Below, one piece after another: positions 1 through 57,562 of a stretch of 64,000 bases of DNA; position 1 is the first letter of the stretch, and every line of letters begins with the position of its first letter. This DNA comes from Hydrurus foetidus (Eukaryota). The DNA lies in the NCBI GenBank assembly GCA_900617105.1, contig UYFQ01000001.1, positions 1,426,001 through 1,490,000 on the forward strand. The letters are read 5' to 3'. The position numbers and the translations under genes are program-made. The notes beneath the pieces were generated by a model. It was not told where the DNA came from. It saw only the letters and a program-made list of their open reading frames with translations, and did not search any database.

Positions 1-1
1 G

Positions 2-26837: not shown

Positions 26838-26891
26838 ACCATCTCAAATCGAGCGCGACACGACAATGACGTCAACCGACCGACAGTCGGA
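26838..26891 (-). promoter_or_regulatory. Element-type promoter with GTCG-N5-CGAC-like box, upstream of T4CP
   Basis: On -: cggtcggttgacgtca-TTGTCG-17 bp (ending TGA)-GATGGT. Confidence 0.65.
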
Positions 26892-26925
26892 TGGCAGGCA
26901 AGCAAAAGGGCCTTCGAGTTTGGTA

Positions 26926-29900
26926 TTAGACCAACCTCCGCTGTCCCAGCTCCCGTTCTTGCGCCAACTCCCTCTGCTTGCGCAATTCGATTTCTTGGCT
27001 GCTGCTCCGAGCGATGGCCTCGGAGCGGGTCATCGTGGCGTTTGCTCCCTCGACTTGGTAGGCGCCGTTCTTTGCGCGGGAGACGGCGAGTTCCTTAGAT
27101 GCGGACGGATCACTTTCAGCGGCGGGGTTAGTGATGAACGCGCGCTTTGGCGCGCCCGACTCCACCTGAATCTTGATAGGTCTATCCTTGGCATCCACCT
27201 CCATGCCTAGCTCGCCGCGGTTGCCGAATAATTCGGTTCGCGGGAGTTTGTAGTAGGTCGTGTTTTTACCCTCCGTCATTTGGAAAAGCACGGTGTCGTG
27301 GTCGACATGAATGACATAGCCATCGAGTATCTTGCCGTCGGCAATGTTTTCTGCCTGGATCGGCTTGCGGGGGAATAGGCCGTCCTGCTTGATCGCCGAC
27401 AGCTTCTCTTCCCAAAGCGCATTCCTGGCGTCAGCGGTGGCCTGAGCTTTGACTAGCATTTGGGATGGCGTCTTGTTGTTGTCATCAAGAATATCCATGG
27501 CGTCCGCGCCTGCTTTTGAAGTAACGATATTCATGGCTTGTTTGGCGTCCATGGTGATTCCGTTTTTAAGCAAGACGGTTTCCATGTGCGGAACGGCCTG
27601 CGCCATATAGTGGACCAGCGTGCTTCCGGCCCACTTCGCTTTTGGATCGAACCCGCCTTCGTTGATCTTCTCCACGGCTTCGCGCCAGAATCGGTGAGCC
27701 GTGTCGGAAGACTTGTTGATGGATAGGACAGCTCCATTGACCGCGTTGATGATCTCGCAGCCTTTGTCGGTCGCGAGCTGGGCTCTGCGCGCCGCTTCGC
27801 GCTCGGCGCGCTCTTTGAGCACGCGCTCGCCTTCGGCGCGAAGCCTAGCTTCGATGGCTTCTTGCGACTCCACCCCCACTGCTCGGGCGACTGCCGCGCC
27901 AAGACCTGTCACAGCGCTGGCCGCCTTGGAGAAAAAGCCGGTTTTTTCGGAAGCGTTCGAGACGGGTTCGCCGCTCTGAGCTGCTTTGACTTCCGGGGCT
28001 TTCTTGATTTCGGGAGTCCTCACCGCCGATTCAAGTGCGCTCCTGCGAGCCTCATCACTTGGTGCGATAGCTCTGCCATCGATTTCCACCCAGCCCAACG
28101 CCCCATTTGCTTCGCGCTTGACCAACATGCTGTGAGCGCGACCCATTTTTTTGGCCGCATCCAATTTGCTGATGTCTTCTTTGATTTCATGAGAACCGAC
28201 AAAGGCGGCAATAAAGACTTCCTGCCCGGCTGCGTTTGCCTTCATCACAATGTATTCTTTTCCAGAGCCTGGCATGGCACGGGAACACTCATAGGTTGCC
28301 GACAATTGCCCTTCCCGATTGAAGAATCGATCCGGCAATAGTTTCAATGAAACAGCGGGAGTATTGCTGGTTCCAATTTTTCCGTCTGCGATTTGATGCT
28401 CGATTTTCGCAAGCGCATCTGCGCGCTCTTGATCGGCTGCATTGGGGACCAAGACTGCCGCTTGGGCTTGCACCATTTGCTTTTCCCACTTTGAGAAATC
28501 GGCAAGTTGATCCGGTGTCGAACCGATTGGCGCATACCATGTTTTGGCTTCCTCGTCCCACCTGGCTCCGAGCTCTTTGGCTTGCTTGATTTCATCGATG
28601 TTGTTGGGAACATTAAGGTTCTTGCGCTCCTGCGAGCAAGCCCAACGGCTAAATGGTTTCGTTGAGACTCCTTCGGGCACATGCCAAACCTTATTGTCGA
28701 TATCGAACTTCGCGCCCGCAGCTTTTGCCGCTGCTCTTTCATGAATCGGGACCATCAGAATCACTGATTCAGCGGCCCGCTCGGCCCATGATCTCTCTTG
28801 CGCCTTTTTTGCTGCATGCTTGATCTGTTCAGGATCGATTCCCACCAAAGCAGCGATCTCGTCGCTCGATGTATCAAGCGCCTGACCCGACTCGTTGATG
28901 GCTTCGATTTGGCCTCTGTCGCCGAGTTTTAGGTAGGCCGCGCAGCCCTGATACTCCACGGACGCTCCCACTGCCTTGCCTTGGATGATGTCAAGATTGA
29001 CCTCAACTCCTGCCCATCCCACATCGACGATTTTTTCGCCGAGCGATTGCGTCCAGCCCGGCGCCTTGGCCGCCAGAAGGCCTTCGGCTGCATTGAGCAA
29101 AAAGTGCTTCCCCTGCTCGGTGTCGTTCCAAGCAATCATTCCGCTTTGGCTGCGGTGCTCGGCTTGTCCTGTCAGCCTCGCGGTCAACTTCGAGACGAGG
29201 AAAGGCCTGTGGCGCGAACCGTCCGGCTCGGTCGACTTGGGTTTCCAAAGATTCAGCCATTCTTTTGGCAAATCCTTTGGCGCAACCGAGGACCGCAGGT
29301 CGTGGTCCCATGCCACCCCAAGTTTTCTCGCGATTTCGCGATCGGCATAAGGCACATCCAGAAGGTTGCGCCCCAGCTTGTCCAATCCGGGCATCTCGTC
29401 GGCTGGGAGGTATTTGGCGACAAGCGCCAATGCGGTTCCCGGCTCCGCGATATAGGCTCGCTCTTCTTTGCTCCAGTGAATGCCTTTGATCTTCGCTTTC
29501 GTGATCTCATTGCCTTGGTCGTAGGGCACTTTGAACGACAAGGGAACTTGCAACGCCTCCCATTTGGACAGGATCGCCATGTTTGCATCTTTGGGCGCAT
29601 ACCAGACATCGGCTGAGCGGTCGTATTCGGCGCCTGCCCTGAGGGCTTCATCGGCTTGCTTTGGCGGAACCGACAACAAGATCGAAACCTTGGATCGCTC
29701 GGACAAAGCTTGCGCTTTATGCTCCCTTGCCTTTGCGAGCTGCTGGGTTTTGCGATCCTCATTGGCGTTCTTGTATTGAGCTTTTAGCACCGATTCGTTG
29801 ATCCCGACGGTGGCCGCAAGGCCGCGGCGATCCAAAATGATGGCGGAGCCGTTCACGCGTCCAGCCAGACGGCCATGCTCATCAATATGCCACTCAAAGG

Positions 29901-32900
29901 ACTGTCCCTTCGATTCAATCGCCACCTTGTTGGCGTGATCGTTAAGAAGGTCGATCCTGACCTGCGCGCCTTGCAGTTTGCTCAACCGAATTCCGAATGA
30001 TTCCGAGTGTGACCATTTGTCGCCTTTGGCTGTGGCTTTGAGAATCGACGATGCCATGGGGACGGCGATGCAAACGCCTTGTGCGTTCCATACCAAGAGC
30101 GATTTGCGATCTCCCGACAGACCAGCGATCGTGCCCTCCACGGCCGCAAGGCCTTCGACACTGGCCGGAAGCGAACGGCAGCCTTCGGTGAGGTTGCGTT
30201 CCTTAAACATGGATAGAAGAGCCGCCTCGTGCTCTGTGGGCGCAACCCATGCGTTGCGATCAGGCATCCAAACGGCCCCGGCCGATTTGGCTTTGGCATG
30301 TTGGCCGAAGGGGACTTGCAAAGCCTTATAGGCTCCGATCTCGGCTTTTGCTTGCTCGACAAGCTTCTTGACCGCAAGGTCTTCGGAAGACTCAACCTTT
30401 GCTCCGACCTTGATGCGTTCAAGCCTCTGTTCAACATAGGCGCGAAGCGCGCGCGCTGCGTGTTGCTCCAACTTCGATGTGACGGCCGCCGCTCGCGCAA
30501 AGAACTGGTCGAGAGCGTTGCCGTTGCCAGCCCGAGCAGAGGCAAACTGCGCTCCGCCAAACTGGCGGGCAAGCTTTGCCAAAGCAGCATTGGCGCCCAT
30601 GAGCGATTCTGATGCGCCGGCCAAATCCCTGCCCCGGACCTTTTCTGTTTTGTTTGCTGCGGCAGCCTCCAAGGACTCGCGTTCCTTTTCCAAACAAAAC
30701 ATCTTGAACGAGTAGCGGTGGCGCGAGGCGCCCACCAGCAAGGATTCCGCGCCACTCATGGCGTTGAAAAAATAGCCCGACAGGTCTACCGTCATGCCTT
30801 GGCTGCGGTGGGTAGTCATGACATACGCATGTTCGAGCCTGGCTCCAGCCTTCGAGTCGAACTCGACAATTCCTTTGCCATCGACCGCTACTTTGAAATG
30901 CACCGACTTGCCGTCTTCTGCAACCTTGACGGATAGAACCGTTCCGGTATCGGAGGTGTCCACCAGCGCGATCGGTTTGCCGCGCTCGTCAAGCCCTGCC
31001 TTTTCGTCGGCAATGCCTTTGATGAAAAGCATGCGGTCACCCACCCTAAATTCACGTTGGCTCGTCTCGCCGCCCGCGGTTTCGCACATCAATGTCGCGC
31101 CTTCCTTTCCGAGCGTGCCGTTTTCAATGAGTCGCTTGCGGATCATTGCGTTGAGCGATGCGCAGTCGGAGTTTGTGCCTGCTAACATTTCCTTCTCTTC
31201 GAGCTTGCAATCCTTTGAAAAGAAGAAGTCGACAAACGCTTTCTGTTTGGCTTCTAGCGTGTCGAAAGTCGCAATCACGCCTTGCGCCTCCATGCTGCTT
31301 ACAAAGTCTTCGTGGCGCCCTTCATATTGCGCCATGATGAATTCCCGATGTTTTTCCGCCTCGTTCTTCTGGCGCGTGATGGCCGTAAGATCGCAGACTA
31401 CGCCCGGAGCAATTTCTTGCACCCGCGCCATGGGATCGCCGCGCCCCACGGCAGCCAATTGTTTGGTGTCGCCGAACAGGACGACGCGACCACCGCGCTC
31501 CTCGACCTCTTGAACCAATCTGAGCATGTCAGGCATATCCACCATCGAACTCTCGTCGACAAAGATCATTGTTCCTTTCTTGATTTGCTTGAGCGCTTCC
31601 TTGTCGCCAACAAAACCTTGTATGGCATAGCCCATTTGCATCTCGGCGTCTTTCTTGGCGCCGCCGACCGCCTTCCAACTCGGAGCCAAGATCACATGAT
31701 CGATACCCTCATCCTTGGCGAAGGCGACAACGGCGCTCAACGCGGTTGTCTTGCCAGAGCCTGGCGGCGCTTTGACGACCATGACGCGCGCGTCGCTGGT
31801 CAAAATGGATTCGATGACGTCCTTTTGGTCGTCGCGCCAAGCAAAGCCTGGTTTTTGCCCCTTCGCAATCTGCGCTGCGTTTCTCTTGTCCTCGGTCTTT
31901 TGAATGATCGCCTTGGCTTGCTCGGGCGTGGCAGCACGCACTCCTCCTGTCACCATGCGCCCGACTGCTTTGTCGAATTCCATCTCTTCGCGGATAGCCT
32001 GCGACAAGACATAGACCCGTTCATTGTCTTTTGCCGCGGTCATCTTGCCGTCGGTAACCAATGCAGCCATTTTGTTCGTGTCGGCCTCTATCGCCAAAAC
32101 CGGATTGTTCAAGATGCGCTCCATGCGCTCATCTATATTGAAATCGCCATGGCCGATTGCATCAACCCAAAGAGCCTGCCTGAGTTCATTTGGCGTGAAA
32201 GTAGTCTTGTGCGCGCAGATACCATCAAGAAGATTGAAGTCCGTGATCATCGGTGCTTCCGTAAGCGCGCGGCGCCTTTGGGCACGCGCTTCATCCACCG
32301 CCCTCTGCTCTTCGATGCCTTCGGCTCCCATCCCAAGCTTCTCGCGCGTCAACCCGCGCTCCTCAAGGTGGTCAATCCATGCTTTGTAGGTTTCGGCGAT
32401 ATCGCCATCATCGGCCTTGGCCTCCCTGGTCTCCAGCTTGCCGTATGAGTAGTCGGTTTTTTTGCCTTCCTGCGCAGCCTTGTCTCTAAGGGCTTGGATC
32501 GCCAGCGCGCGGCCTGACATGCTTTCCACATCAGCGCGGTCAATGCCTGGCGCTTTGATCCCGACCACGGCCTTGCCGTGCGGAGCGCCAACATCGAATG
32601 CGCAAAAACGATCGCCTGCGGCATTGCGCAGACCATTGAACCGTTCAAGCACGCGCGCATGAAACTCGGCATCCATTTCTTTGCGCATGTCTTCGAGTTC
32701 TTCCGTCGACAAGGACCTGTGCCGGCCTTGCTCGTCGACGGTAATGTTGATGGCGACCGCATGACCGTGCAGGCCAGGCGCCATTCCTTGCAAGACTTTT
32801 TCGCCCACAAATTGCTGCGCGCCTTCTGCACCATCCAATTCGGCAGCATCATTGACTTGCCCGCCATCTTTGACGACGCGCGTGGTGTCGTGAACAATCA

Positions 32901-33717
32901 CCGAGGCCATACCTGCCGCACGGATCACGGTCGGCTTCTCCCCTCGATTAACACCCTTAAAGTCACGCGTTTGCGCGTGGGCGTTTAATCGCCTATCCAC
33001 AACGCCAGAGGTCTCCTCTTGAAACGCTGCGCGCATCAACGCCTTTTCTTCGTCGGTTGCGCGCGCATAGACAATGCTCATCTCTTTGCAGAGGCTGAAT
33101 GTGAAATCGACCGCCTGCCTTTGTCCGCCCGGCATACTAGCCAAATCTTTACCCAACTTCTCGCGCCGTTCTTCATGCACCTTGCCATAGACAAGGAAGC
33201 TCTTGGTTTCTTCATCCCAAATCTTTCCTGCGCGCTTGCCTGCCATCAAGACGTCGTGTTCTCTGACAAGTTCTTGGGTTTCTTTAAGTTTGCCGTTCCA
33301 AACTTTGAGCACGGCGCTGCCTTCGCGCAAATAGTCGATCTCCGAGCGGGTCAAGTCACGTGATTTTTCCGCTTTGCGGATCAAGCGCATTTCGCGCGAA
33401 AGCAAACACATGCCCAACGCTTCGGCATCGGCCGACTTGCGCAAGGGAACAAGTTGCCCCTTACTAATCTGCGTTAACAAAGATGTGCCAGGCGCGAGGC
33501 GACTGCGAGGATCAAATCCGTTGAGCAAATACAAAGAGTCTTCTGCGGTCATCAACTTGCCCTCAAGGCCAAGCTCCTTTGCTAGACCGCCTACCCAACG
33601 CGGCGCGTCGGGTTTGGCGTGCGCCTCAGCATCTGATCCGATGTAGTAATCCAAGGAATCTTCCAGATCGTCCTGGTAGTAGTCGGGGTTGTGAACAATC
33701 GCAATGGAGACTGTCAT
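26926..33717 (-). CDS. MOBF (TrwC/TraI-like) relaxase-helicase with extended C-terminus (DUF5710-like repeats, KfrB-like end)
   Basis: DYY..DYY tyrosines, VDFTFS, HDTTR, PGLHGHAV (HUH); helicase PPGSGKTT, VDESSM, GDTKQL, HAYVMTTHRSQGMTV. Confidence 0.92.
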   Translation of the reverse strand: MTVSIAIVHNPDYYQDDLEDSLDYYIGSDAEAHAKPDAPRWVGGLAKELGLEGKLMTAEDSLYLLNGFDPRSRLAPGTSLLTQISKGQLVPLRKSADAEALGMCLLSREMRLIRKAEKSRDLTRSEIDYLREGSAVLKVWNGKLKETQELVREHDVLMAGKRAGKIWDEETKSFLVYGKVHEERREKLGKDLASMPGGQRQAVDFTFSLCKEMSIVYARATDEEKALMRAAFQEETSGVVDRRLNAHAQTRDFKGVNRGEKPTVIRAAGMASVIVHDTTRVVKDGGQVNDAAELDGAEGAQQFVGEKVLQGMAPGLHGHAVAINITVDEQGRHRSLSTEELEDMRKEMDAEFHARVLERFNGLRNAAGDRFCAFDVGAPHGKAVVGIKAPGIDRADVESMSGRALAIQALRDKAAQEGKKTDYSYGKLETREAKADDGDIAETYKAWIDHLEERGLTREKLGMGAEGIEEQRAVDEARAQRRRALTEAPMITDFNLLDGICAHKTTFTPNELRQALWVDAIGHGDFNIDERMERILNNPVLAIEADTNKMAALVTDGKMTAAKDNERVYVLSQAIREEMEFDKAVGRMVTGGVRAATPEQAKAIIQKTEDKRNAAQIAKGQKPGFAWRDDQKDVIESILTSDARVMVVKAPPGSGKTTALSAVVAFAKDEGIDHVILAPSWKAVGGAKKDAEMQMGYAIQGFVGDKEALKQIKKGTMIFVDESSMVDMPDMLRLVQEVEERGGRVVLFGDTKQLAAVGRGDPMARVQEIAPGVVCDLTAITRQKNEAEKHREFIMAQYEGRHEDFVSSMEAQGVIATFDTLEAKQKAFVDFFFSKDCKLEEKEMLAGTNSDCASLNAMIRKRLIENGTLGKEGATLMCETAGGETSQREFRVGDRMLFIKGIADEKAGLDERGKPIALVDTSDTGTVLSVKVAEDGKSVHFKVAVDGKGIVEFDSKAGARLEHAYVMTTHRSQGMTVDLSGYFFNAMSGAESLLVGASRHRYSFKMFCLEKERESLEAAAANKTEKVRGRDLAGASESLMGANAALAKLARQFGGAQFASARAGNGNALDQFFARAAAVTSKLEQHAARALRAYVEQRLERIKVGAKVESSEDLAVKKLVEQAKAEIGAYKALQVPFGQHAKAKSAGAVWMPDRNAWVAPTEHEAALLSMFKERNLTEGCRSLPASVEGLAAVEGTIAGLSGDRKSLLVWNAQGVCIAVPMASSILKATAKGDKWSHSESFGIRLSKLQGAQVRIDLLNDHANKVAIESKGQSFEWHIDEHGRLAGRVNGSAIILDRRGLAATVGINESVLKAQYKNANEDRKTQQLAKAREHKAQALSERSKVSILLSVPPKQADEALRAGAEYDRSADVWYAPKDANMAILSKWEALQVPLSFKVPYDQGNEITKAKIKGIHWSKEERAYIAEPGTALALVAKYLPADEMPGLDKLGRNLLDVPYADREIARKLGVAWDHDLRSSVAPKDLPKEWLNLWKPKSTEPDGSRHRPFLVSKLTARLTGQAEHRSQSGMIAWNDTEQGKHFLLNAAEGLLAAKAPGWTQSLGEKIVDVGWAGVEVNLDIIQGKAVGASVEYQGCAAYLKLGDRGQIEAINESGQALDTSSDEIAALVGIDPEQIKHAAKKAQERSWAERAAESVILMVPIHERAAAKAAGAKFDIDNKVWHVPEGVSTKPFSRWACSQERKNLNVPNNIDEIKQAKELGARWDEEAKTWYAPIGSTPDQLADFSKWEKQMVQAQAAVLVPNAADQERADALAKIEHQIADGKIGTSNTPAVSLKLLPDRFFNREGQLSATYECSRAMPGSGKEYIVMKANAAGQEVFIAAFVGSHEIKEDISKLDAAKKMGRAHSMLVKREANGALGWVEIDGRAIAPSDEARRSALESAVRTPEIKKAPEVKAAQSGEPVSNASEKTGFFSKAASAVTGLGAAVARAVGVESQEAIEARLRAEGERVLKERAEREAARRAQLATDKGCEIINAVNGAVLSINKSSDTAHRFWREAVEKINEGGFDPKAKWAGSTLVHYMAQAVPHMETVLLKNGITMDAKQAMNIVTSKAGADAMDILDDNNKTPSQMLVKAQATADARNALWEEKLSAIKQDGLFPRKPIQAENIADGKILDGYVIHVDHDTVLFQMTEGKNTTYYKLPRTELFGNRGELGMEVDAKDRPIKIQVESGAPKRAFITNPAAESDPSASKELAVSRAKNGAYQVEGANATMTRSEAIARSSSQEIELRKQRELAQERELGQRRLV

Positions 33718-33719
33718 GA

Positions 33720-34343
33720 TCAGGCTCCCGGTTGAAGATCAACAAGCATGTCAGCCAAGCGCTCGACAGCGGCGGCGATATTTTGCGCAGGTTCATCAAT
33801 GGACACTTGAATCATTTCAAGACGGTCGACCATTTCGGCAGCTTCGTCGCGCGCTCTAGCAACATCGAGCAGGCGATCGCTCAAAAGTTGAGTTGCCAAT
33901 TCGCTTGCGCGCACGTCGTCCGACAATTTATTGATGGCGCGATCCGAGTCTTGGATATATGTCCACATGCTGTCGAGTTGCGGTTGAACCACCGCAAACT
34001 CTTGCGCGGTGTGGTCAATGGCGCGCCGCATTTTTTCGATTTCCATCATCGCGAACACGAGGCCCGAGGTGGCGCCGATGCGAATCTTGATCAAGTCGGT
34101 AAGAGAAATGCCAAGCCGGTCAGCTTCGGCTTGAAACTGCGCCTTTTCCGCAACTGGGATGCGCAATCCAACAAAGGATGTCCCCGACTCGTCAGGATGA
34201 TCGTCCTTGGCGCCGCGCGGGCGGCCTGCCTTCTTATTCGCGCCCACAGTGCTCACGATGGCGCTAGGGTCTTTGCGGGGCCTTCCCCGCTTCTTTTGAA
34301 CAGCTTGCTCGCTGTCGATTGATGGGGTATTTGGGTGGTCCAT
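33720..34343 (-). CDS. Relaxosome accessory protein-like (AT-hook + RHH + coiled coil; MobC/TrwA-like role)
   Basis: KKRGRPRK and AGRPRG, FVGLRIPVAEKAQFQAEADRLGISLTDLIK; directly upstream of the relaxase. Confidence 0.65.
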   Translation of the reverse strand: MDHPNTPSIDSEQAVQKKRGRPRKDPSAIVSTVGANKKAGRPRGAKDDHPDESGTSFVGLRIPVAEKAQFQAEADRLGISLTDLIKIRIGATSGLVFAMMEIEKMRRAIDHTAQEFAVVQPQLDSMWTYIQDSDRAINKLSDDVRASELATQLLSDRLLDVARARDEAAEMVDRLEMIQVSIDEPAQNIAAAVERLADMLVDLQPGA

Positions 34344-34374
34344 CGCCGTCTCCCGGTCTTCTTGTTATGAACCT

Positions 34375-34403
34375 ACCTTCTCAAAACGAAAATCTGAAGT
34401 CAA
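34375..34403 (-). promoter_or_regulatory. Element-type promoter of the mob operon
   Basis: TTGACT-17 bp (ending TGA)-GAAGGT. Confidence 0.6.
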
Positions 34404-35780
34404 CCTGATTTTTGTTTAATAACAAGAAAACACCCTTCCCAGAGGGGAAAGCCTATTTTTGGGTATTTATTTTGAATTGTTTTTTTAACAAATTAAAGGA
34501 TCAGCGACTGTCTGATGAAAATTTATGCTTTTGACCTTTGCTTTTGGTCTTACAGAATTCAAAGAAAGCAATGCAAGATGAGCTTGATGAGAATTTCCTC
34601 GATGCTTTGTTTAAGCGACCTTAGGAGGGTTTTAAGTAAACCTTTATTGTTTTCTTTGTCTTCTGAAAGCCTTCAAATTTATAGATTGCGAACCTTGGTT
34701 TCCAGAGAAGGCAGCCTTCATTTGCGGGCGAACATTGCTCATATTTAAGAGAAACAACATTGCTTTTGAAAATCTCGATGAGCGAACATTGGGAAGAGAG
34801 CCGACCCTTCTTGGAGTTGTATGCCCACATTTGCCGATTTTTTTTGATGACTTTGGGTCTCAAAAACAACAAAGCCAAGGGAGGTCCGCAAACGTTTTTC
34901 ACTGGGAAATTCGTGCTTTCTTGGAGACCCAAAGTCGACAAACGATGTTTAGATCATGTTGGCTTTTTTCTATATCAACATTACAAGCAGAATACATTGG
35001 AAATACATTGATCACACATTCATCACACATCGAAATGCCATGAATTTTGACGCTCATAAACTTTGTTTGCCATTCCTTTGACTTTGCCTGCCTCTTCTTG
35101 CCCTTTTTTGCCCTTTTAGTCATATTCATTCCATATTGAATAGCAGGCCTACGCTGGGAGAACTACGGTTTTAAAAGCAGTTTTGGCTATTTCTTCCAGG
35201 TGGCCTTTTCTTTGCTCATGGAGAACCTAGTAAGAGCCTATGCGCCGGACGCGCGACGGTTTCGTAGGTTAGAGTCCCGTCGCGCGTCCATGCCATTAGT
35301 GGAGATAGCCACGCGTTTTTTGGATAAGTGGCATCCACAATTGCGAGAATGCCCAGCAATTTATTTCGCCAAGGCGACGACCTCTTTGCGCGCAATAGTT
35401 GGCAGCCGTTGAAGTAATTTTTGAATCTTCTGCGCGCTGATTGGTGTTGAATATGCGCGCGCCGCCCTGAATTTTTCTGCGCGCTCGAGCGCGCAATTGG
35501 GGCGGATTTTCTCAATATCTTGGAACCGCGCGCGGAGCGTTCTAGTCGGATTTTGGCTTAGTGCATTGGACGATGTTTTGCAATTCGGACGAGCCGATTG
35601 TTTTGCCCTTATGGCTCGCCGTGGCGTAAACCTAACTTGCATAATCGCGGCGGCTTCGTTTGAAACTCGCCGCCGATGTCGCACTCCATTTCGAAAAAGG
35701 ACGCGAGCTTTTTGGTTCCGTTTGTCGGATATGAGTCCGCAGGTTTTAAGCTATTTTGAACCAACCGGTAAGGTTTTATG
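34404..35780. other. Long non-coding region, probable oriT
   Basis: Position upstream of the mobC-like/relaxase operon; AT-rich block then palindrome-rich block; no credible ORF; nic site not identified. Confidence 0.45.
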
Positions 35781-35842
35781 AATGGCTTATCAACATATTT
35801 ATCGTTGAGAGGTGCTGTTTGCGAAACGATGAGCCTGAGCTA

Positions 35843-36064
35843 ATGCAAGAGAAAGGGGCCATTGAAACGACCGTTTTTCGTGAGGCGAAAAGTGAAGCCG
35901 TGCGAGGTCTGATTGAAAGCCAATCGAAAGAACTTTGCATGCTCGGAGCTTCGAGGTCGGTTGACAACAAAAGAAAAGCGCGCTTTATTTTAGAGAACCC
36001 CGAAGGGATGATCGCGCTGCTTCTTTGTGTGTTGCTCATCATTTGGATCGTGAAATCGCAATAG
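35843..36064 (+). CDS. Small hypothetical protein with C-terminal TM helix
   Basis: Ends GMIALLLCVLLIIWIVKSQ; 16 bp before the next gene. Confidence 0.4.
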   Translation: MQEKGAIETTVFREAKSEAVRGLIESQSKELCMLGASRSVDNKRKARFILENPEGMIALLLCVLLIIWIVKSQ

Positions 36065-36080
36065 GATTAGGAGAAAACTC

Positions 36081-36524: not shown

Positions 36525-36545
36525 TCCTGCGCTTTTCAACGAATC

Positions 36546-36574
36546 AAGGCCGCCACAAGGCGGCCTTACCTTTT
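36546..36574 (+). terminator. Intrinsic terminator
   Basis: aaggccgcc-acaa-ggcggcctt then a short T-run. Confidence 0.6.
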
Positions 36575-37105: not shown

Positions 37106-37122
37106 GATTCGCTCCTTGAGAT

Positions 37123-48956: not shown

Positions 48957-48967
48957 CGTAGTCCCCG

Positions 48968-49019
48968 TTTTGTAAGTGCTTAATACAAAAACACTCTCAA
49001 AGCCGCTCCTCCACGTCAA
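48968..49019 (-). promoter_or_regulatory. Element-type promoter followed by TTTTGTA-N9-TACAAAA operator
   Basis: TTGACG-17 bp-GAGTGT (49019-48991) abutting perfect 7-bp palindromic arms at 48968-48990. Confidence 0.65.
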
Positions 49020-49226
49020 GCAAAAGGCTTGATGGCTCGACGCGCTTCGGATGGGCGGCAATCAAACGACGCTGAAAATCAAACACGGATCGCTGCCTTG
49101 TCGCGAATCAAAAACCTGCGATCCGCTGGACGGTCGGTTGTCGACCTTGATACTGAGCCCGCCACGTGGGAGAACTTAGAGAACGCCGCGCTACGCCGGT
49201 CCATTCAATAAGTCGGGAGAGAAATC

Positions 49227-50417
49227 ATGAAGAGCGAACCACTTCAAAACAACGGCGGCGATGCTTCGCGCCAACGCACCCATGCGGAAATCCGCTTGCG
49301 CGCGCAAAAGCTATTGGATGAGCAAAACGCGCGTCTCGGATTTGACGCAGCGGCAAGGAAGAAGCGATCAAAGCTCGAAGGAGGCGCGCCCATTGGGGCG
49401 TATGTGTTTGGGTTCTTGGTTTCAGGATTTGTAGCGGTGACCGGAATCTCTGGCTATGCCGAGCTTAAGACAGCGACCGACATGGCGCAAAAGGCGACCG
49501 ATGCTCAAATTCAATCTGAGTCTGCAAGGTCGGTCGCTCTATTAGCCCAGTGGATCGAAGCAAACATGGCTCCGGCTCGCGCAGCAGTCAACTCAACCGA
49601 CCTGCTTGGCATGGACCAAAGCCGGGGTCAAAGATACCTTGTGGACATAGGCAAACAGCAAAGGCAAATTCAGGCTCTTGCTCTCATTTCGCACAACGGT
49701 CAGCAAATAGCCCGAAGCGATGGCAAGCCAACATTGGACAATGCAGACCGATTGTTCTACAAGAAGGGAATAATGGGGCAAGAGGTTTACGACTTTGAGG
49801 TTTCGAAAACCAGCGGACGTCCCGCACTGTTCACAGGAGTTCCCATTGTTTCCGAGGATAAGGTGGTCGGAGTCCTCATGAGCAACTCTGATTTGAGCTC
49901 AGCCACCGACACCATCTTCCCGAAATTCGGAAGGACAGGCGCAAGTGTCCTGGTCGATGCGGACAGCAAAGTTCTATTCGCCGAGGACAAAAAGCTGATC
50001 GGCAAAAAGCTTCCATACCTTGGCTCCGCCGTCGCTCATGACATGAAGATTCCCCGAGCGGTCAGCATGTCAAGAAAGGAACTTGACGACCGTTTCGCCA
50101 TCATTTCGATGATCGACGAAGAAGAAGCCTATGAACCGGTCGCCCGCGTCAAGGATGCCGTGCTCTACAACTTCGGCATCGGCCTGGCTGGCTCGCTTGC
50201 AATCGCGCTCATGCTAGGGTTCATCGCATCGCGCTCCATGCGCGCCATTGCCTCTCTCATTGAAGACGCGAGTCGCGCCGGAAGCGTTGAAAAGCTTGTG
50301 GAAATCGAAAGGGAGCTGGACAAGACGGCCAATGCGTCGGAAGTTCGCATGCTGGTCCGCTCTATCAAGCGTCTCATCTCTTCCATCAAGATCAGCATCC
50401 TCACTCGCAAGGCATAA
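49227..50417 (+). CDS. Cache-domain membrane sensor without evident output domain
   Basis: TM, then DNADRLFYKKG...VSKTSGRPALFTGVPI...VVGVL (Cache-like), TM and a short HAMP-like tail. Confidence 0.75.
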   Translation: MKSEPLQNNGGDASRQRTHAEIRLRAQKLLDEQNARLGFDAAARKKRSKLEGGAPIGAYVFGFLVSGFVAVTGISGYAELKTATDMAQKATDAQIQSESARSVALLAQWIEANMAPARAAVNSTDLLGMDQSRGQRYLVDIGKQQRQIQALALISHNGQQIARSDGKPTLDNADRLFYKKGIMGQEVYDFEVSKTSGRPALFTGVPIVSEDKVVGVLMSNSDLSSATDTIFPKFGRTGASVLVDADSKVLFAEDKKLIGKKLPYLGSAVAHDMKIPRAVSMSRKELDDRFAIISMIDEEEAYEPVARVKDAVLYNFGIGLAGSLAIALMLGFIASRSMRAIASLIEDASRAGSVEKLVEIERELDKTANASEVRMLVRSIKRLISSIKISILTRKA

Positions 50418-50433
50418 AGAAAGGAGACCCACC

Positions 50434-50736
50434 ATGAGCAAGATGTCGGCAATCGAAAAAGAGCAACTCCGCGTTGCAGCAGAGGATGCCTACGGGCCGT
50501 TCGGCGCTGAATACGTCGTCAAATTGATGGAGGCGAACCCAACTTTCGACCTCGCGGATGTCGTCGACGTGACTATGAATGCGCTAACGGCCAATGAGGA
50601 ATTCTTGGAAGCTGTTGTTGCGATACATGAATTGCGAAAAGCGCACCCGAGTCCTTCCGTTCAATTCGAGGTTCCAAGACGGGAGTTTAAATCTCGCGTC
50701 AAAGCGCTAAGCTTTGGATCGGATACAACAAAGTAG
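50434..50736 (+). CDS. Hypothetical protein (100 aa)
   Basis: AAGGAG RBS 16 bp after the sensor gene; terminator follows. Confidence 0.65.
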   Translation: MSKMSAIEKEQLRVAAEDAYGPFGAEYVVKLMEANPTFDLADVVDVTMNALTANEEFLEAVVAIHELRKAHPSPSVQFEVPRREFKSRVKALSFGSDTTK

Positions 50737-50753
50737 TCGGATATGGCAAGACG

Positions 50754-50778
50754 AAGGCCTCCATGCGAGGCCTTTTTT
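50754..50778 (+). terminator. Intrinsic terminator
   Basis: aaggcctc-catgc-gaggcctt then T-run. Confidence 0.7.
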
Positions 50779-50798
50779 CATTGCGTCGGCCGGTGGTG

Positions 50799-53024
50799 TC
50801 AATTCCTGCTTTGTTTCGCCTTGGCGCGCCAAGCGTGCAGCAAAGGCTCGGTGTAGCCATTGGGTTGCTCCATGCCTTTTAAAACCAGCTCGACGGCGGC
50901 CTGGTAAGCCAGGCTTGTATCGAAGTTTCCCGCCATCTGCTTGTATAGCGGGTCCTTGGCGTTTTGGCGATCGACGATCGATGCCATGCGCTCAAAAGCC
51001 TCGGTGACTTGCGCGTGGGTCACGATGCCATGGCGCAGCCAGTTGGCGATGTGTTGGCTGCTGATGCGCAGGGTCGCGCGGTCTTCCATCAGGCCGACAT
51101 TGTGGATGTCAGGAACCTTGGAGCATCCAATGCCTTGGTCCACCCAGCGCACGACATAGCCAAGAATGCCTTGGGCGTTGTTGTCGAGCTCTTGCTGGAT
51201 TTCATTCTGCGACCAGCAGGGTGTCTCCACAACCGGGATGGTAAGCAAGTCTGCAAGGATGCTTTCGCGAGCCGCTGCCGATCGCGCCTTCTGAATCTCG
51301 GCTTGGACGGCTGCGACATCGACCTGGTGATAGTGCAATGCGTGGAGCGTCGCGCCCGTGGGGCTCGGCACCCAAGCCGTGGTTGCGCCCGACTTCGGGT
51401 GCGCGATCTTTTGCCGCATCATGTCGGCCATCATGTCGGGCATCGCCCACATGCCCTTGCCGATTTGAGCCTTCCCGCGCATGCCGCAAGAGAGTCCGAC
51501 CAAAACATTGCTTTTCTCATAGGCTGCGATCCACGCGCTTGCCTTCATGTCCCCTTTGCGCAGAACCGGACCGGCCTGCATGCATGTGTGCATCTCATCG
51601 CCCGTGCGGTCAAGGAATCCCGTGTTGATGAATGCCAGGCGGTTCTTGGCCGCTGCGATGCAAGCTTTGAGGTTGGTGCTTGTCCTGCGCTCTTCGTCCA
51701 TGATCCCCAGTTTGACGGTGCCCAGGCGCAAGCCAAGGGCCGTTTCGACGCGCCCAAAGAGCTCGTCAGCAAAGGCGACTTCGGCGGGCCCGTGCATCTT
51801 TGGTTTGACGATGTAGATGGATCGCGCGAGGGAGTTGCGCGGCCCACTGCCCTTCTTCAAGTCGTGCATTCCAATGGCGGTTGTAACCATGGCATCCATG
51901 ATCCCTTCCGGGATTTCCATCGTCGACCCATCCGCCGCCTCGTAGAGGATGGCGGGGTTGGTCATCAAATGTCCAACATTGCGAATGAACATGAGCGATC
52001 GGCCTTGGAGCGCAATGTCTTTGCCCCCTCGCGCCGATTTGTAAACGCGATCCGGGTTTAGCGACCGCTCGACCATCTTGCCGTCCTGCCCAAAGGTGGC
52101 CGACAATGAACCTTGCATCAAACCGAGCCAGTTGGCGTAGGCCGCCACCTTATCCTCGGCATCGATGGCCGCCACAGAATCTTCAAGATCGAGAATCGTT
52201 GACAAGGCAGCTTCAACGATTACATCGCTGACCCCCGCGGCGTCCTGCATCCCTATGTCCGAAGACTCCGAATTGATTTGAATTTCCACATGGAGCGCGT
52301 TGTGGACCAGAAGAACAGCCGAGGGCTTTGCGGCCATGCCTTGGTAGCCGACAAACTGAACGGAGTTCGCAAGCGTGGTCGATTCCCCGCTGGCAAGCTC
52401 AACGACGAGCTCTCCCCCGACGATCGAATACCCGCATGATCCGACATGCGATCCGTATTTGAGTGGCGCCACTCGATCGAGCACATTGCGAGCATATTCG
52501 ACAACTAAGGCGCCGCGAGCGGGGTTATAAATCCTGCCGCGCCTCTCGCAACCACCGGCTTCGGCAATGACATCCGAGCCATAGAGCGCGTCATAGAGCG
52601 AACCCCAACGGGCGTTCGCGGCGTTGAGCGCATAGCGCGCATTCATCACCGGGACAACAAGCTGCGGCCCCGATTGTTTGCTCAGTTCCCTATCGACGCG
52701 CGTGGTCTGGACCTTGACGGTCTTCGGCCGATCAACGAGGTATCCGATCGAGCGCAAGAACTCTTTGTATGACGCCATGTCGGCAATCGGTCCGGGATGA
52801 GCCATGTGCCATGCATCAAGCTCGGACTGCAATCGGTCGCGTTCTTTGAGAAGAGCGATGTTGCGCGGCGCCATGTCGCCTACGATTGAATCAAAGCCAG
52901 ACCAAAATTCTGCGCTGGAAATTCCGATGCCAGGCAAAACATTGCTTTCGACGAAATCGAAGAGTTGCTTGTCGATGTGCAGCTTGTTTAGGACAATGCG
53001 AAGGGAAGACTTTGGCGAGTTCAT
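50799..53024 (-). CDS. glcB: Malate synthase G
   Basis: [71 protein letters not shown]. Confidence 0.97.
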
Positions 53025-53169
53025 GTCGGTCCTTTAAAGTGGTTTGTTGATTCACACTCTCAAAACCGCCGTCGACTCGCAAGGCTTTTTTGCTTACAAA
53101 ACAAATGATCCGCCAAGCGGTCGGCAGACGACCTTAAGGTTTTTGCAGGCGCCTCTAGACTTTCACCAA

Positions 53170-54066
53170 TCAATGGGCGACGCCAATGCGCTTGATCGCT
53201 ATGGCGCGGTATTCCGGGTCTTTCTCGAATCCGATAAAACGCCTCCCGGCTTTAAGGGCCGCAACTGCATGCGACCCCGAGCCTGAGAATGGGTCAAGCA
53301 TTACTTGACCTTCGGTGCTGAACAAGCGCAGCAAGTGTTCGATAAGGCTGACAGGCTTGACGGTCAGGTGTTCGTTCCCCTCCCCCTTCTCTGCAACGCC
53401 AGGCTTTGCCACTGGCATCAGGTTCCCGGGAAATTTATCGTCGAGGCGTGCAGTCGTATCGACAAGTCCAGTCCCGTGCGCGAACCAGTTTTCGGCAAAG
53501 GTGCCATCCTTCGGCTTTTGGGCAAGCACCATGGGTTCAATGCACGGGCGCAGTTGCGGGGTCTTGCGCCCCCCAATCGCCGCAATTCGCGCCGCCTTTT
53601 CGGCATCGGAGAGCGAGCCGTCTTTGCAGATGATGTGATCCAAGCCGAACGCTTTGGCTTGCCCTGAATAGGTCCACCCGAGCATGTCGCGCAGTTCAAA
53701 GCCGGAGTCCTCGACGGCAACCCCAAGGCGATGGTAGAGGCGCGCCTGCGAGAAGCAGATGAAAAACGCGCCAGGCTTTAGGACCCTGTAAACTTCGGGC
53801 GCGACCTTGCGCATAAACGCCTCGAAGGCAATGCCCTGTTTGGGGTCGAACTTCATGCCGACGGGCATGGACTTTATCACTCCCGCCTTCTTGGTTTTAT
53901 CGGCAAGCTTCGCCTTGCTCCACTGGTCCCCCATGCCATCAATAAAATACGGTGGATCGGTGATGCAGATGTCGATCGATTGGTCGGGTATGCGCTTCAT
54001 GCCGAGCAGGCAGTCCTCGCAAACAATCTGGTTCTCAAGGCCTGCCGGCAGCACGATCTTTTGCAT
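53170..54066 (-). CDS. Orphan N6-adenine/N4-cytosine DNA methyltransferase (beta class)
   Basis: ITDPPYF, HLTVKPV, LDPFSGSGS, FIGFEKD. Confidence 0.9.
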   Translation of the reverse strand: MQKIVLPAGLENQIVCEDCLLGMKRIPDQSIDICITDPPYFIDGMGDQWSKAKLADKTKKAGVIKSMPVGMKFDPKQGIAFEAFMRKVAPEVYRVLKPGAFFICFSQARLYHRLGVAVEDSGFELRDMLGWTYSGQAKAFGLDHIICKDGSLSDAEKAARIAAIGGRKTPQLRPCIEPMVLAQKPKDGTFAENWFAHGTGLVDTTARLDDKFPGNLMPVAKPGVAEKGEGNEHLTVKPVSLIEHLLRLFSTEGQVMLDPFSGSGSHAVAALKAGRRFIGFEKDPEYRAIAIKRIGVAH

Positions 54067-54190
54067 GGTGGTTGCCCCACTCTTTTTGTTTTTCTCCCTT
54101 TAAATTGCCGGGTGCGGCGGCGCATGGCAAGGCCATTGGTCGGTTTACGTCCGATCGTCGAAAGATAGGTTGCGCCAGGCGCGTGAACAG

Positions 54191-54472
54191 TTAAGTTCTT
54201 GCGTCTTCTTGCGATGACTCGCGCGCGTCTTCGCCCCCATCAACATGCTGCGCCAAGTTGGCAAAGAATGTCCTGATGGCCTCGTGCTTGCGAAGTTCGA
54301 CTGCGGCCTTGGCGAACAATTGCGCTGTGAGGGGATAGAAGTAGACGTCTGGCAAAGTTTCAAAGCGACTCTCACCGTTCTCGGTGATGGAGATGGCTGA
54401 AACAAAGCCTTCCGGGACCTCCAAGACCGCTGCCCGGAATTCAGGTATTGGTCTTATGGTTCGCGCGCCCAT
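54191..54472 (-). CDS. Hypothetical protein (93 aa)
   Basis: GGGGG RBS-like run; element-type promoter at 54504-54532. Confidence 0.55.
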   Translation of the reverse strand: MGARTIRPIPEFRAAVLEVPEGFVSAISITENGESRFETLPDVYFYPLTAQLFAKAAVELRKHEAIRTFFANLAQHVDGGEDARESSQEDART

Positions 54473-54552
54473 GTGGCCCCCGATGAAGGAAATGGATACA
54501 TTGACCATCGCAAAGGACTTGCGATGCGTCAACGCCATTGGTCGGTAACCGA

Positions 54553-55131
54553 CTAAATACGGATCGCGCGCGCCGAAGGCGCAACTCTTTCATCAACATG
54601 GGACGCAATCAGCGACGCCTCGCGCGCGGCAAACAACGACTCAACGGATTCATCGAATGGAACATAAAAGATGCTGTCCAAGATCGGCGACGGCTGCCGC
54701 GGATGAAGTCGCAGCGCCACGATTGTTTCCTCTTCATCCAGCCTGAAACGATCGAAGGATGAATGTGCGTTAAATGCGCGCCCCCAGTTTTTTTCGAGCG
54801 CATCGATGAGAGGCTTTTTGTATTCGCCGCTCATCTCGCGCCGAACGCTTGTCCAACGCCATCGCGCCAGCTCGCCATGGCCCGCGGGGCCGCAAAGCTG
54901 AACGCTGCCGCAGTCATACTCGTAAAGATCGATCATTCCATCGAACGAGCCCGTCGAAAACTGGTGGACGATCGGCGCCACCTCGGATTCAGGCGGGCCT
55001 TCCACCCACTCGACGGCAAGCCGTTCCCACTTTCTGATTTGAATGTTGAAATTCACACCGGGCCACGCCTCTTTGAGGCCCCGGGCCAACAGATTTTTTG
55101 TTTGAATTGGAGAGAATTTTTGGTCGGACAT
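54553..55131 (-). CDS. LPD29-like domain protein with C-terminal tail
   Basis: LKEAWPGVNFNI...VEWVEGPP...GSFDGMIDLYEY; AAGGAGG RBS; ends RAIRI. Confidence 0.7.
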   Translation of the reverse strand: MSDQKFSPIQTKNLLARGLKEAWPGVNFNIQIRKWERLAVEWVEGPPESEVAPIVHQFSTGSFDGMIDLYEYDCGSVQLCGPAGHGELARWRWTSVRREMSGEYKKPLIDALEKNWGRAFNAHSSFDRFRLDEEETIVALRLHPRQPSPILDSIFYVPFDESVESLFAAREASLIASHVDERVAPSARAIRI

Positions 55132-55253
55132 GGGAACCTCCTTTCAGCAATTTTTGAGAGAATGAAAGTGTGCCACCGATCGACTTTTGTATGTCAAAAA
55201 TCGATTTATCGCTTTGGTTTATGACGAAAATTGCGCGCTCGCCTATCCTAGGG

Positions 55254-56027
55254 TTAGACGTCTTTTCGTCCGCGCTTGACGGGGCCGACGGTTGCGATGC
55301 CGTTGATATCCGAAGGATAGGAGATGCGAACCGTTTCGCCCTTTTGCGGGAGCGGCGAAGGCAGCAAAGCCTTCTCGTGAACGATAAGGCTGCGTCCGCT
55401 CTTTTGGAATACGACGTGGGTGTCGTATCCGTAGATGGCGCCGCTGTAGGTCTGCCCTGCTGCGGCCCATCGTGCGCTTTTGCCTGTTCCCGCCAAAGCC
55501 TTGGCGGCCTTTGCCTCGTAGGCGGATACGCGGGGGCGCTCACGCAGAGGCTGCGGGGGTGTCTCGCGCTCATGCTCAAAATCCAGTGAAACCTTGGTGG
55601 CAGTGATCGTGACATTCAGTCGCTTGGCACCCATATCGATCGCCTTTTTCACGAAGTCAAGATTGATCGATTCCACGAAGTCATCGCCACCAAGAATCTG
55701 CCACGCGTCCCATCCGTCCTCCGGGGTCATGCCCTTGGCATAGACCACAAGGGAGCGCTGGCCAGTGGGGTCGGCCGGGTCCATTAGGCGCGGTGTGCCG
55801 GATGAGAGCAGGTAAACACCGTGATCTTTGGCAAGCTGGAGATGTGCCGGGATTTTGGAATAGTCGAGGTCTTCGGTCTTGGCCCATCCGCCAACGTGCG
55901 GTGTGATGCCCTCCTTCCAGTAGGCCGGGTCCGCCATCATGTTGTAAGTCGGCGAATGGGTCGCGCTGGCGAGAGCGTGGGCGACGATGGGTTTGAGGGC
56001 TTCGACATCAAAAACAAGTTTAGCCAT
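55254..56027 (-). CDS. DUF3085-like domain fused to KfrB-like domain
   Basis: LAKDHGVYLLS, VYAKG, GGDDFVESI; C-terminal GQTYSGAI...QKSGRSLIVHEK...GETVRISY. Confidence 0.7.
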   Translation of the reverse strand: MAKLVFDVEALKPIVAHALASATHSPTYNMMADPAYWKEGITPHVGGWAKTEDLDYSKIPAHLQLAKDHGVYLLSSGTPRLMDPADPTGQRSLVVYAKGMTPEDGWDAWQILGGDDFVESINLDFVKKAIDMGAKRLNVTITATKVSLDFEHERETPPQPLRERPRVSAYEAKAAKALAGTGKSARWAAAGQTYSGAIYGYDTHVVFQKSGRSLIVHEKALLPSPLPQKGETVRISYPSDINGIATVGPVKRGRKDV

Positions 56028-56077
56028 GGTGTTTCTCCTTAAGTTGGCGTGGTGGGTGGTTTGGCAATGGCTGCCGA

Positions 56078-56647
56078 TTAGCAGCAAGCGGCGTTTGTGA
56101 CCGTGTAGGTCGTGCCGGCAAATTCAAATTCGGTCATGTCTCCGCCAAGCTCGCAATCGCGGGCAAAGGCTGCGTAGTCGATGTAGTTGCGGACCGACTC
56201 GGGGATGTCCGACAAGTAGCATTCATCGAAAAGCTCTTCGGCTGCATCCTTGAGTTCGCCTTCGTAAATGCTGGGTTCGTCGATCTTCTCGATGGCCTGC
56301 TCGATCGAGCAATTGAGGACACTGGTCAAATAGAAAAATGCGGGCTTCTGGTGGTCGTCGATGGTCAACACCTCGTCGAAGAATTGCTCTAGGTTGGCTT
56401 GGTTCACGCCGCAAGCGTTAAAGAGATCAATCTCTTCGGCGTCGCCATCAATCACTTGAATTTCGAATTCCTCCACAGGGTTGCCAAAGCTGTCGCGCAA
56501 GGCCTCGGCCTTGGCTGTGTAGTCCTCATAGTCCGAGAAGTAGAAGCCGCGAGCATCAAGGCTGTAAGGCTGCGCAAAGCAAGAAAGCCCAGAAGACATA
56601 GGGAAATCGGTGGCTTTGCTGGAAGTTTGGTTTTGGGTGGTGTTCAT
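56078..56647 (-). CDS. ardA: Antirestriction protein ArdA (acidic DNA mimic)
   Basis: AQPYSLDARGFYF, VEEFEIQVIDGD, YIDYAAFARD; very acidic. Confidence 0.85.
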   Translation of the reverse strand: MNTTQNQTSSKATDFPMSSGLSCFAQPYSLDARGFYFSDYEDYTAKAEALRDSFGNPVEEFEIQVIDGDAEEIDLFNACGVNQANLEQFFDEVLTIDDHQKPAFFYLTSVLNCSIEQAIEKIDEPSIYEGELKDAAEELFDECYLSDIPESVRNYIDYAAFARDCELGGDMTEFEFAGTTYTVTNAACC

Positions 56648-56747
56648 GATTTGGTTCTCCGGTAGTTTGAAAAGTGATCCTCTCGTTCGAACCTCTTCGC
56701 TCCCTTTAGGGCGGGGGGCATGTCTTTAAGGAGTGCGAAAAAAACAA

Positions 56748-56850
56748 AAAACCGGCTTTCGCCAGTGTTCGGTTTGCATCCCCAAGTAAGTCCCCTTCGC
56801 TCAATCGTGAGGGGCTTACCTTGGGGTTTGAACATTGGCGATCCGGTTTT
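56748..56850. repeat. About 100-nt imperfect hairpin upstream of ardA
   Basis: Nested arms aaaaccgg/ccggtttt, tcgccagtgttc/gaacattggcga, ccccaag/cttgggg, gtaagtcccct/aggggcttac. Confidence 0.8.
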
Positions 56851-57143
56851 CAAGAGCTGCAACGACGCGGCATTCGAGCCCGTCGCCGTGCGAACGCCGC
56901 GCCACAAAGCGAAGCAACTGGCGCTGCTTTCGTCCAGCAGAGGGCTTGGGTTTTGTGCGTTCGGAAATCGCATGGCAAATGCCATGGGCTTGCCCTTGGC
57001 GTGCGACAGGCCCGAGCGGACCGTCTTTCAGGTGAGAGGCCCACGTAGGCTCCCGCAGCAAGCGATTTGAGCGCCTTTGGCATAGCCTTGGCGCGAGACT
57101 CGCCCTCTCAACCTCACAACGATGCAATCGTTGCGTCTTTTGA

Positions 57144-57344
57144 TTAGAAAAGCCAAATGGCGATCGCGATGGCGACCAGGGCAAATTGAGCTCCCAAAAG
57201 AATATTTGCAGAGCGGGGCGATACGCCCTGAGATGCCATTCCGTCCTCAAGGTCGAGCATCGCTTGATCGGCTCCGTCGTCGATCAGGTGCGACACAGAG
57301 CTTGCGCGCTTGGCCTTTGTTTTGTCAGTGGTGTCGTTGTTCAT
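57144..57344 (-). CDS. Small protein with C-terminal TM anchor
   Basis: AGGAG RBS; ends FALVAIAIAIWLF; element-type promoter at 57395-57423. Confidence 0.6.
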   Translation of the reverse strand: MNNDTTDKTKAKRASSVSHLIDDGADQAMLDLEDGMASQGVSPRSANILLGAQFALVAIAIAIWLF

Positions 57345-57562
57345 GGTGCTCTCCTGGTGGTTACTGGGCTTCAAGTTATCGAGCCCTCAAACCCACCCTC
57401 CCAAACCGTGGGACTGAAGTCCAGGTCTTTCACGTCGTTTTGTATTAAAAAAAGCGCGAACTGACCGGCGGTCGACAACTTGGGCCGGCAACCGACCGTC
57501 GGCATAGCAATCAAATGCAAACAGCGCCAAGCTGGATTTAGAAACTCCACCACGAGGCGCGC

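Follow-up and report, generated by a model that had tools for sequence, protein, structure and literature searches.

The IncP, IncN and IncW plasmids carry global operator networks of the Kor/Ard type, whose promoters are canonical sigma70 promoters. AcaCD, which links IncC plasmids to the genomic island SGI1, is an activator complex with its own upstream box. In that system, according to PMC5389848, the helper's AcaCD induces the tra promoters of the island. A third arrangement is the plasmid-encoded sigma factor, on which the open-licence literature deals mostly with Bacillus: SigN (ZpdN) of the Bacillus subtilis plasmid pBS32 recognizes promoters of the form TTTACG...GATA(T/A)A, hardly any of which lie outside that plasmid (PMC6751061). 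Here we describe a promoter-like class on a mobile island within a stretch of 64,000 nucleotides (contig UYFQ01000001.1, positions 1,426,001 to 1,490,000, of assembly GCA_900617105.1, deposited as Hydrurus foetidus), hereafter the window. Transfer genes and cargo genes of this island share promoter-like sites with a TTG-type -35, a 17-bp spacer and a -10 starting with GA, that is, with G at position -12 (G-12).

As in the Kor/Ard networks, repeated operator-like motifs lie at backbone promoters and small candidate DNA-binding proteins are encoded; the motifs themselves and the promoter type differ, however, and binding is here predicted. Promoters of the housekeeping sigma factor RpoD with a base other than T at -12 (T7A1 and lambda PR, or ihfA and Rmet_4428 of Cupriavidus metallidurans) likewise retain all conserved contacts except -12, and in Burkholderiales starts have been mapped for similarly built promoters with G-12; in host sets, however, G-12 is a minority of 8-13% among T and C, whereas here it is fixed in the core sites and conserved across the element family. 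The SigN class is similar in being restricted to its element, in joining a housekeeping-like -35 to a GA-starting -10 and in serving many operons. SigN, a weakly ECF-like (extracytoplasmic function) factor, has however been identified and shown to act in vitro, and its -10 has neither T-7 nor a TG extension (PMC6751061), whereas the host considered here is Gram-negative, A-11, T-7 and a preceding TTTG are retained, and no sigma gene was found among the reading frames scanned. Small relatives of the island resemble SGI1 in carrying a partial set of transfer genes, with TraY/DotA-like, type IV coupling protein (T4CP) and pilin-like genes, whose promoters may answer to a helper (compare PMC5389848). 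They differ from it in that the distinguishing feature lies inside the -10, the transfer system is of the MOBF type with a type IVB-like component, and no helper was identified. The open-licence literature searched contained no account of the motif or of the element family.

Promoter-like sites of the island

Fourteen intergenic sites had been listed in an initial annotation of this DNA, and all 14 hexamer pairs are located at the coordinates and on the strands given there, with 17-bp spacers throughout. Ten of them form a tight core (Table 1), with the consensus T(T/G)G-N15-TTTG-N-GAnnnT, 27-50 nt ahead of an ATG led by a Shine-Dalgarno (SD) sequence. Within the core, the -35 reads TTG in nine sites and TGG in one, and the 17-bp spacer, A-11, T-7 and TTTG at -17 to -14, which provides the T-15 and G-14 of an extended -10, are present in 10/10. 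The remaining four sites (37324, 40496, 40607 and 49147), all without TTTG and two of them (40496 and 49147) also without T-7, are considered uncertain. The 12 variable bp have a mean identity of 29% between sites (maximum 50%), which rules out recent duplication as their origin.

A core site is present at 9 of 26 operon leaders and a weak site at 4 more, the gene behind the tenth core site being just under the gap threshold for counting operon leaders. The class is shared by transfer genes and cargo, as had been proposed, but the term "element-wide" was too broad, since all sites are confined to 26.8-57.4 kb of the window. Its reported absence from host genes (0 matches, 7 genes) and from the defence operon within the window was confirmed.

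Enrichment relative to shuffled and control DNA

A weight matrix trained on the ten core sites gives them 21.1-26.7 bits and the best unrelated site 14.6, a comparison that is circular in that the matrix is applied to the sites from which it was built. Nine matches to the tight pattern were counted in the window, where 0.25 +/- 0.52 would be expected, and none of 100 shuffles attains 9. As this pattern was derived from the same window, less circular tests were applied. With only the features of RpoD promoters fixed (TTG, 17 bp, TG, A-11, T-7) and -12 left free, nine matches were obtained; all nine have G-12, all share TT at -17/-16, and all are followed by SD and ATG 27-40 nt downstream. Within 100 nt ahead of each of 48 element genes, TTGnnn-17-GAnnnT was counted 12 times, and exchange of G-12 for T, C or A at the same spacing gives 0, 1 and 1 occurrences, while G with spacers of 13-22 bp other than 17 gives 0-4. 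Canonical sigma70 matches between 39 and 58 kb are, if anything, depleted (2 against 7.8 +/- 3.0 expected).

Control DNA consisted of ten replicons totalling 5.08 Mb (eight from Burkholderiales, one from Xanthomonas and one from Pseudomonas, the host chromosome itself not being among them). The loose form of the pattern has 60 matches there, a density of 11.8 per Mb, which is 13-fold below the 159 per Mb found here; SD and ATG follow in 8/60 of these matches against 9/9 here (Fisher p=4e-7). The tight form is about 200-fold rarer, with 4 matches in 3.9 Mb (0.8 per Mb over all ten replicons), and TTTG was seen by eye in 0/20 loose matches of the remaining 1.18 Mb. Five MPF_I plasmids considered as candidate helpers (W02, W03, W08, W09, W10) showed no motif enrichment, and a Polaromonas plasmid (W11) had 13 loose matches against 2 in the reversed control, 0 of them with TTTG.

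Conservation in related elements

The same class is found in three related elements, L002, L003 and L004, with T4CPs 48% (L002) and about 44% (L003 and L004) identical to that of the window. In L002, TTGACT-17-GATGGT at 1825 precedes the mob genes and is orthologous to the window site at 34375, and TTGACG-18-GAAGGT at 9944, with the same upstream palindrome, precedes the T4CP gene and is orthologous to the site at 26838. Three further GA sites lie close to genes in L002, two being duplicates, and the loose form occurs 4 times against 0.6 expected, a number reached by 1/100 nulls. In L003 and L004, extended sites number 4 and 3, respectively, each against 0.03 under a Markov null. TTGCGC-17-GATGCT at L003:573 and L004:1658 is orthologous to the window site at 40051 and precedes an orthologue of the window gene 39222-39926 whose protein identity is about 29%. 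The class is retained across 29-48% protein identity. No gene-proximal TTG(A/C)-17-TAnnnT was found in the window element or in L002, L003 and L004, which by itself is weak since fewer than one is expected per element. We conclude that the promoter-like class is real, conserved and specific to one element family.

At 12217-14347 of L002, genes for EcoRI-type methylases form a tandem duplicate, each copy with the same GA-type promoter and with the operator-like motif A described below. The sequences of L004 (1-21760) and L003 (1-21560) represent an apparently uncatalogued island of about 22 kb at tRNA-Arg(TCT), with an integrase and an Xis-like first gene. It encodes a T4CP, a MOBF relaxase, pilin-like proteins and its own TraY/DotA-like protein, but no full mating apparatus. 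The left end of L004 features tRNA-Arg (complete at 129-203, with a canonical TAAAAT ahead of it) and arm-like repeats, and its right end the integrase; L003 features the start of the integrase, arm-like repeats and, by eye, an apparent 3' half of tRNA-Arg. Judging from these ends, L004 would be a nearly complete 22-kb mobilizable island with its left junction outside view. Its TraY/DotA-like protein could remodel the pore of a helper, as SGI1 does.

Operator-like motifs and candidate regulators

Two further motifs accompany the sites. Motif A comprises the palindrome CCGACnGTCGG and the related GACGGTCGG; at several sites it immediately precedes the -35, and it also occurs in L002 at 9920, 12189 and 13293. 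Its two forms are intergenic in 9/12 and 5/6 matches, and motif B, TTTTGTA(A/T), which is frequently paired in inverted orientation and lies beside the -35 or after the -10, is intergenic in 10/14, where intergenic DNA makes up 13% of the element. Motif A is missing at the core sites 34375, 48991 and 53054, and a different repeat takes its place in L003 and L004.

Candidate binders of these motifs are a NikA-like protein, the mob accessory protein and a protein of 75 amino acids (aa). The fold model of the latter is of low confidence (mean predicted local distance difference test score 58.7), with no fold or PDB match. A relative 87% identical to it is found on a contig of 37,485 bp, and relatives of the T4CP and the relaxase are found on a contig likewise of 37,485 bp.

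Candidate readers of the motif

The reading that we favour, with confidence close to even, is that the core sites are promoters with a dedicated RpoD-like sigma factor, carried by the island or by a helper, as their preferred reader. Such a factor would prefer G-12, recognizing it specifically through an altered region 2.4, and its gene would lie on a helper element or in the part of the island outside the window. A precedent is SigN of pBS32 (PMC6751061). Transcription would start about 7 nt after the -10, and genes for transfer, leading-region functions and cargo would show hardly any expression before the factor is present. Ribbon-helix-helix regulators encoded by the element may bind motifs A and B as a second layer. 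Small islands lacking a sigma gene would borrow the factor, much as SGI1 borrows AcaCD. A dedicated factor is favoured over detuning of housekeeping promoters because mere detuning should also make use of C at -12, yet G is found in 9/9. The presence of the same promoter design at Burkholderiales-type cargo suggests that the design is under selection now and is not left over from a former host.

Several observations weigh against a dedicated factor. No sigma factor was found by Pfam scan among the 131 open reading frames (ORFs) of the window, beyond which the element extends, and no sigma domain among 80 of the 117 ORFs of the nearly complete L004 island, which carries the class; the other 37 lie inside the spans of the T4CP, relaxase, TraY and integrase genes, four genes that were themselves scanned or identified by homology. 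A dedicated reader would thus have to be encoded in DNA past the end of the window or by a helper element; a small island without sigma gene is compatible with it, since the factor may come in trans, as AcaCD does for SGI1. The NCBIfam "sigma factor" MzaA scored well under its threshold, on ankyrin repeats, and its matches were discarded. The relatives add few independent replicates, as three of the four sites in L003 duplicate a single module and those in L004 are orthologous to sites in L003. Every conserved core base except that at -12, moreover, matches an RpoD contact, as set out below. The initial proposal of one programme shared by transfer genes and cargo and read by an element-encoded sigma factor or activator is upheld as to the single conserved class, but not as to the factor, none being found among the ORFs of the window.

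The strongest of the alternatives, although in our estimate rather unlikely, is that host RpoD reads the sites as a -35 plus an extended -10, with G-12 weakening an otherwise strong design and repressors on motifs A and B coordinating the genes. Repression would be released on entry into a new cell, as in the Kor regulons of IncP plasmids. The base at -12 is G in both T7A1 and lambda PR. According to PMC2613000, their non-canonical -12 may be offset by -15T or -14G, galP1 has TGnTATGGT, and TTG, the 17-bp spacer, T-15/G-14, A-11 and T-7 are RpoD contacts. A site TTGACA-17-TGC-GAGTAT in element-free C. metallidurans is followed after 7 nt by a mapped start of low score (TSS_1022829+3), and host polymerase is therefore able to use such promoters, if weakly. 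By the published box score for Cupriavidus RpoD, taken without position penalties and rated "strong" when >6.35, each of the 14 window sites obtains 10-13 out of 17. Horizontally acquired genes in Cupriavidus are described as mostly RpoD-driven (PMC9045368). The nearly complete island with the class and without sigma gene, and the operator-like motifs adjoining the -35 or following the -10, are likewise in line with host RpoD.

A hand count of C. metallidurans housekeeping promoters in PMC9045368 gave 32 T, 12 C and 4 G at -12 among 48, against T in 0/9 window sites. The term "non-canonical" for the -10 was thus an overstatement, since its other conserved bases are RpoD contacts and G-12 occurs among these 48. 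Word counts from Table S1 of the same source, in which A is uncounted and a few words stem from other columns, gave 1518 T, 732 C and 336 G at -12 among motifs with G-14. At the resulting rate of about 13% of Cupriavidus G-14 start sites, G in 9/9 has p = 1e-8, and C-12 is two to three times as common as G-12 in host-type promoter sets. Reading by host RpoD leaves unexplained both why detuning should always use G and never C, in 9/9 window sites and in the relatives, and why cargo such as the malate synthase gene glcB should have the same design.

We consider it improbable that host RpoD is redirected to these sites by an RNA polymerase-binding activator of the element or a helper, AcaCD-like or acting by sigma appropriation, which would compensate for the -10 or read TTTGnGA. 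Motif A lies at several sites directly upstream of the -35, a usual activator position, the SGI1/IncC system offers a precedent (PMC5389848), and L003 and L004 have their own TraY/DotA-like and T4CP genes but no full mating apparatus. The -35, however, is already good, motif A is missing at three core sites and replaced in L003 and L004, so that the sites do not share one conserved upstream box as an AcaCD/SetCD-type regulon does, and the variable positions -13 and -10 match the contact pattern of a sigma factor rather than an activator box. FlhDC/AcaCD-like activators had no Pfam or NCBIfam match among the scanned ORFs of the window or of L004.

There is little to recommend a preference for G-12 in an alternative sigma factor on the chromosome of the current host lineage or in the RpoD of a former host. 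One member of the T4CP cluster is labelled Acidithiobacillus, so that the family may cross host groups, but the tight motif is far rarer in the control replicons, none of the Cupriavidus sigma consensuses listed in Table 4 of PMC13492112 fits the core motif, and the clpS leader on the host side has TAGAAT as its -10. Of the readers initially proposed, the RNA polymerase of an ancestral host is the weakest, because the malate synthase cargo is of Burkholderiales type (its best plasmid match, 65% identical, is in Comamonas) and yet has an element-type promoter.

It is very improbable that the sites are no promoters but chance matches, repressor boxes, ribosome-site look-alikes or sigma54 elements: the -10 is purine-rich and SD-like and the GG-N10-GC geometry of sigma54 elements occurs at 3/14 sites, but enrichment, strand, fixed spacer and distance to the ATG speak against this, the true SD lies 15-35 nt further downstream, and TGGCAC is found in 0/14 upstream 20-mers. 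A link to GANTC-type methylation was dismissed by eye, the consensus not being GANTC.

The island and its genomic setting

Bases 1-7265 of the window carry host genes of Burkholderiales type (tetR, a thioesterase gene, EamA, the short-chain dehydrogenase/reductase PRK06949, clpA and clpS), from which the host appears to be a Comamonadaceae-like bacterium. A related island copy in a freshwater metagenome (run X3) matches from 7474 onward and leaves the host side unmatched; the island thus starts near 7474 and runs past 64000. Besides the genes in Table 1, it encodes a primase, the NikA-like protein, ArdA, DUF3085-KfrB and LPD29 proteins, ankyrins, a major facilitator superfamily (MFS) transporter, malate synthase G and a GGDEF protein, together with a defence block.

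Table 1. Promoter-like sites and other features of the island, with positions in the window
Feature	Position	Strand	Remarks
Core site TTGTCG-17-GATGGT	26838..26866	-	29 nt before T4CP start
Core site TTGACT-17-GAAGGT	34375..34403	-	heads operon of mob accessory gene and MOBF relaxase
Core site TTGCTT-17-GATGGT	40051..40079	-	before 35-aa ORF coupled to coiled-coil gene (39222-39926)
Core site TTGCGG-17-GAAGTT	44033..44061	-	before membrane-protein gene
Core site TTGCAT-17-GATGGT	45503..45531	-	before gene for 427-aa membrane protein
Core site TTGCGC-17-GAGGGT	48132..48160	-	before IS5-split MFS gene
Core site TTGACG-17-GAGTGT	48991..49019	-	before ankyrin gene
Core site TTGCGA-17-GAGTGT	53054..53082	-	before malate synthase G
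Core site TTGACG-17-GATGGT	54504..54532	-	before 93-aa ORF upstream of DNA methyltransferase
Core site TGGACT-17-GAGGGT	57395..57423	-	before 66-aa ORF upstream of ardA/DUF3085/LPD29 genes
Weak site TTGCGC-17-GAGGAT	37324..37352	-	no TTTG
Weak site TTGCAT-17-GAGAAA	40496..40524	-	no T-7; TTTTGTA motif overlaps
Weak site TTGATT-17-GATGCT	40607..40635	+	no TG
Weak site TTGATA-17-GAGAAC	49147..49175	+	no T-7
Operator-like motif A, palindrome CCGACnGTCGG	26880..26890		just upstream of -35
Motif A, related copies	near 37370, 40093, 40567, 44095, 45554, 48173-48183, 49129, 54540, 57492-57502		
Operator-like motif B, inverted TTTTGTA(A/T) pair	48968..48990		directly downstream of -10
Motif B, copies	near 37379-37401, 38200, 40519, 44080, 53101, 57438		
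Candidate ribbon-helix-helix regulator, 75 aa	40214..40441	-	lead only: Atlas row, MetJ family 0.92
Mobile island adjoining clpS	7474..64000		right end beyond window; basis: related copy match and gene content
Type IV coupling protein (T4CP)	24673..26808	-	PF10412, E 8e-40
MOBF (TrwC) relaxase-helicase, 2263 aa, five DUF5710 repeats	26926..33717	-	Pfam scan
Mob accessory gene, first in relaxase operon	33720..34343	-	46% identity to L002 gene at same position
Proteins with R-L/R-I tail	38209-38880, 41898-42365, 42362-42757, 45573-46562, 48306-48956, 54553-55131		

The island family is rare. Five close relatives of the relaxase and ten of the T4CP were found, the latter nearly all metagenomic, with one from Massilia sp. 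NP310. Searches of PLSDB plasmids by relaxase, T4CP, primase, HTH_17 gene, 62144-63100 or L004 relaxase yielded no family member, and an Ahniella plasmid match from PLSDB was set aside, having 0 tight motifs. The species genomes searched held no close island relative (L001 is only 25% identical), and neither did IMG/VR scans: 12 pattern matches there were rejected as without homology to window proteins, and a further 120, about chance level by estimate, were not inspected singly.

Several other features of the region were noted. The co-oriented genes of the defence-like block (9222-21746) encode a WYL protein, type III restriction-modification proteins (a BPTD_3080-family Res and a Mod), a UvrD-like helicase, an OLD/AAA-TOPRIM protein and Mrr; the GA promoter is missing from this block. 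The first island gene, 7896-9179 (427 aa), has no Pfam, NCBIfam or Atlas match, and its leader features TTGCCT-18-TAATGT, the sole canonical-looking pair at an island gene besides a weak overlap in the mob leader. A candidate oriT region is the AT-rich stretch of about 1.7 kb ahead of the mob operon (34400-36080), which seems to lack coding sequence and of which a short block is kept in L002. The MFS transporter gene (45573-48091) is interrupted by an IS5-family transposase gene (46665-47693). Six unrelated island proteins (Table 1) end in a similar tail, a charged stretch followed by C-terminal R-L or R-I, possibly a type IV secretion export signal. Two 69-nt repeats, 42752-42820 and 55153-55221, 80% identical and with an internal inverted repeat, lie upstream of two genes without GA promoter and possibly represent a second promoter class. 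On the host side, a 12-nt unit is present in three near-tandem copies between clpS and clpA (6829-6866).

Significance for the island family

If host RpoD proves to be the reader, these sites would be a clean case of element-wide promoter tuning, though an ordinary one. If a dedicated factor exists, the change of one base at -12, conserved throughout a family of Gram-negative islands, would lend itself naturally to testing how the specificity of sigma region 2.4 evolves, and would provide a near-orthogonal promoter/sigma pair as well as a sequence tag for finding family members and helpers. We tentatively propose, as a possibility that is itself doubtful, that uncatalogued betaproteobacterial MOBF islands run a private transcription programme through an RpoD-like sigma factor retuned to G-12, and that 22-kb satellites without sigma gene hijack the factor of a larger helper. 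If true, this would be the sigma-factor version of the parasitism seen with SGI1 and AcaCD.

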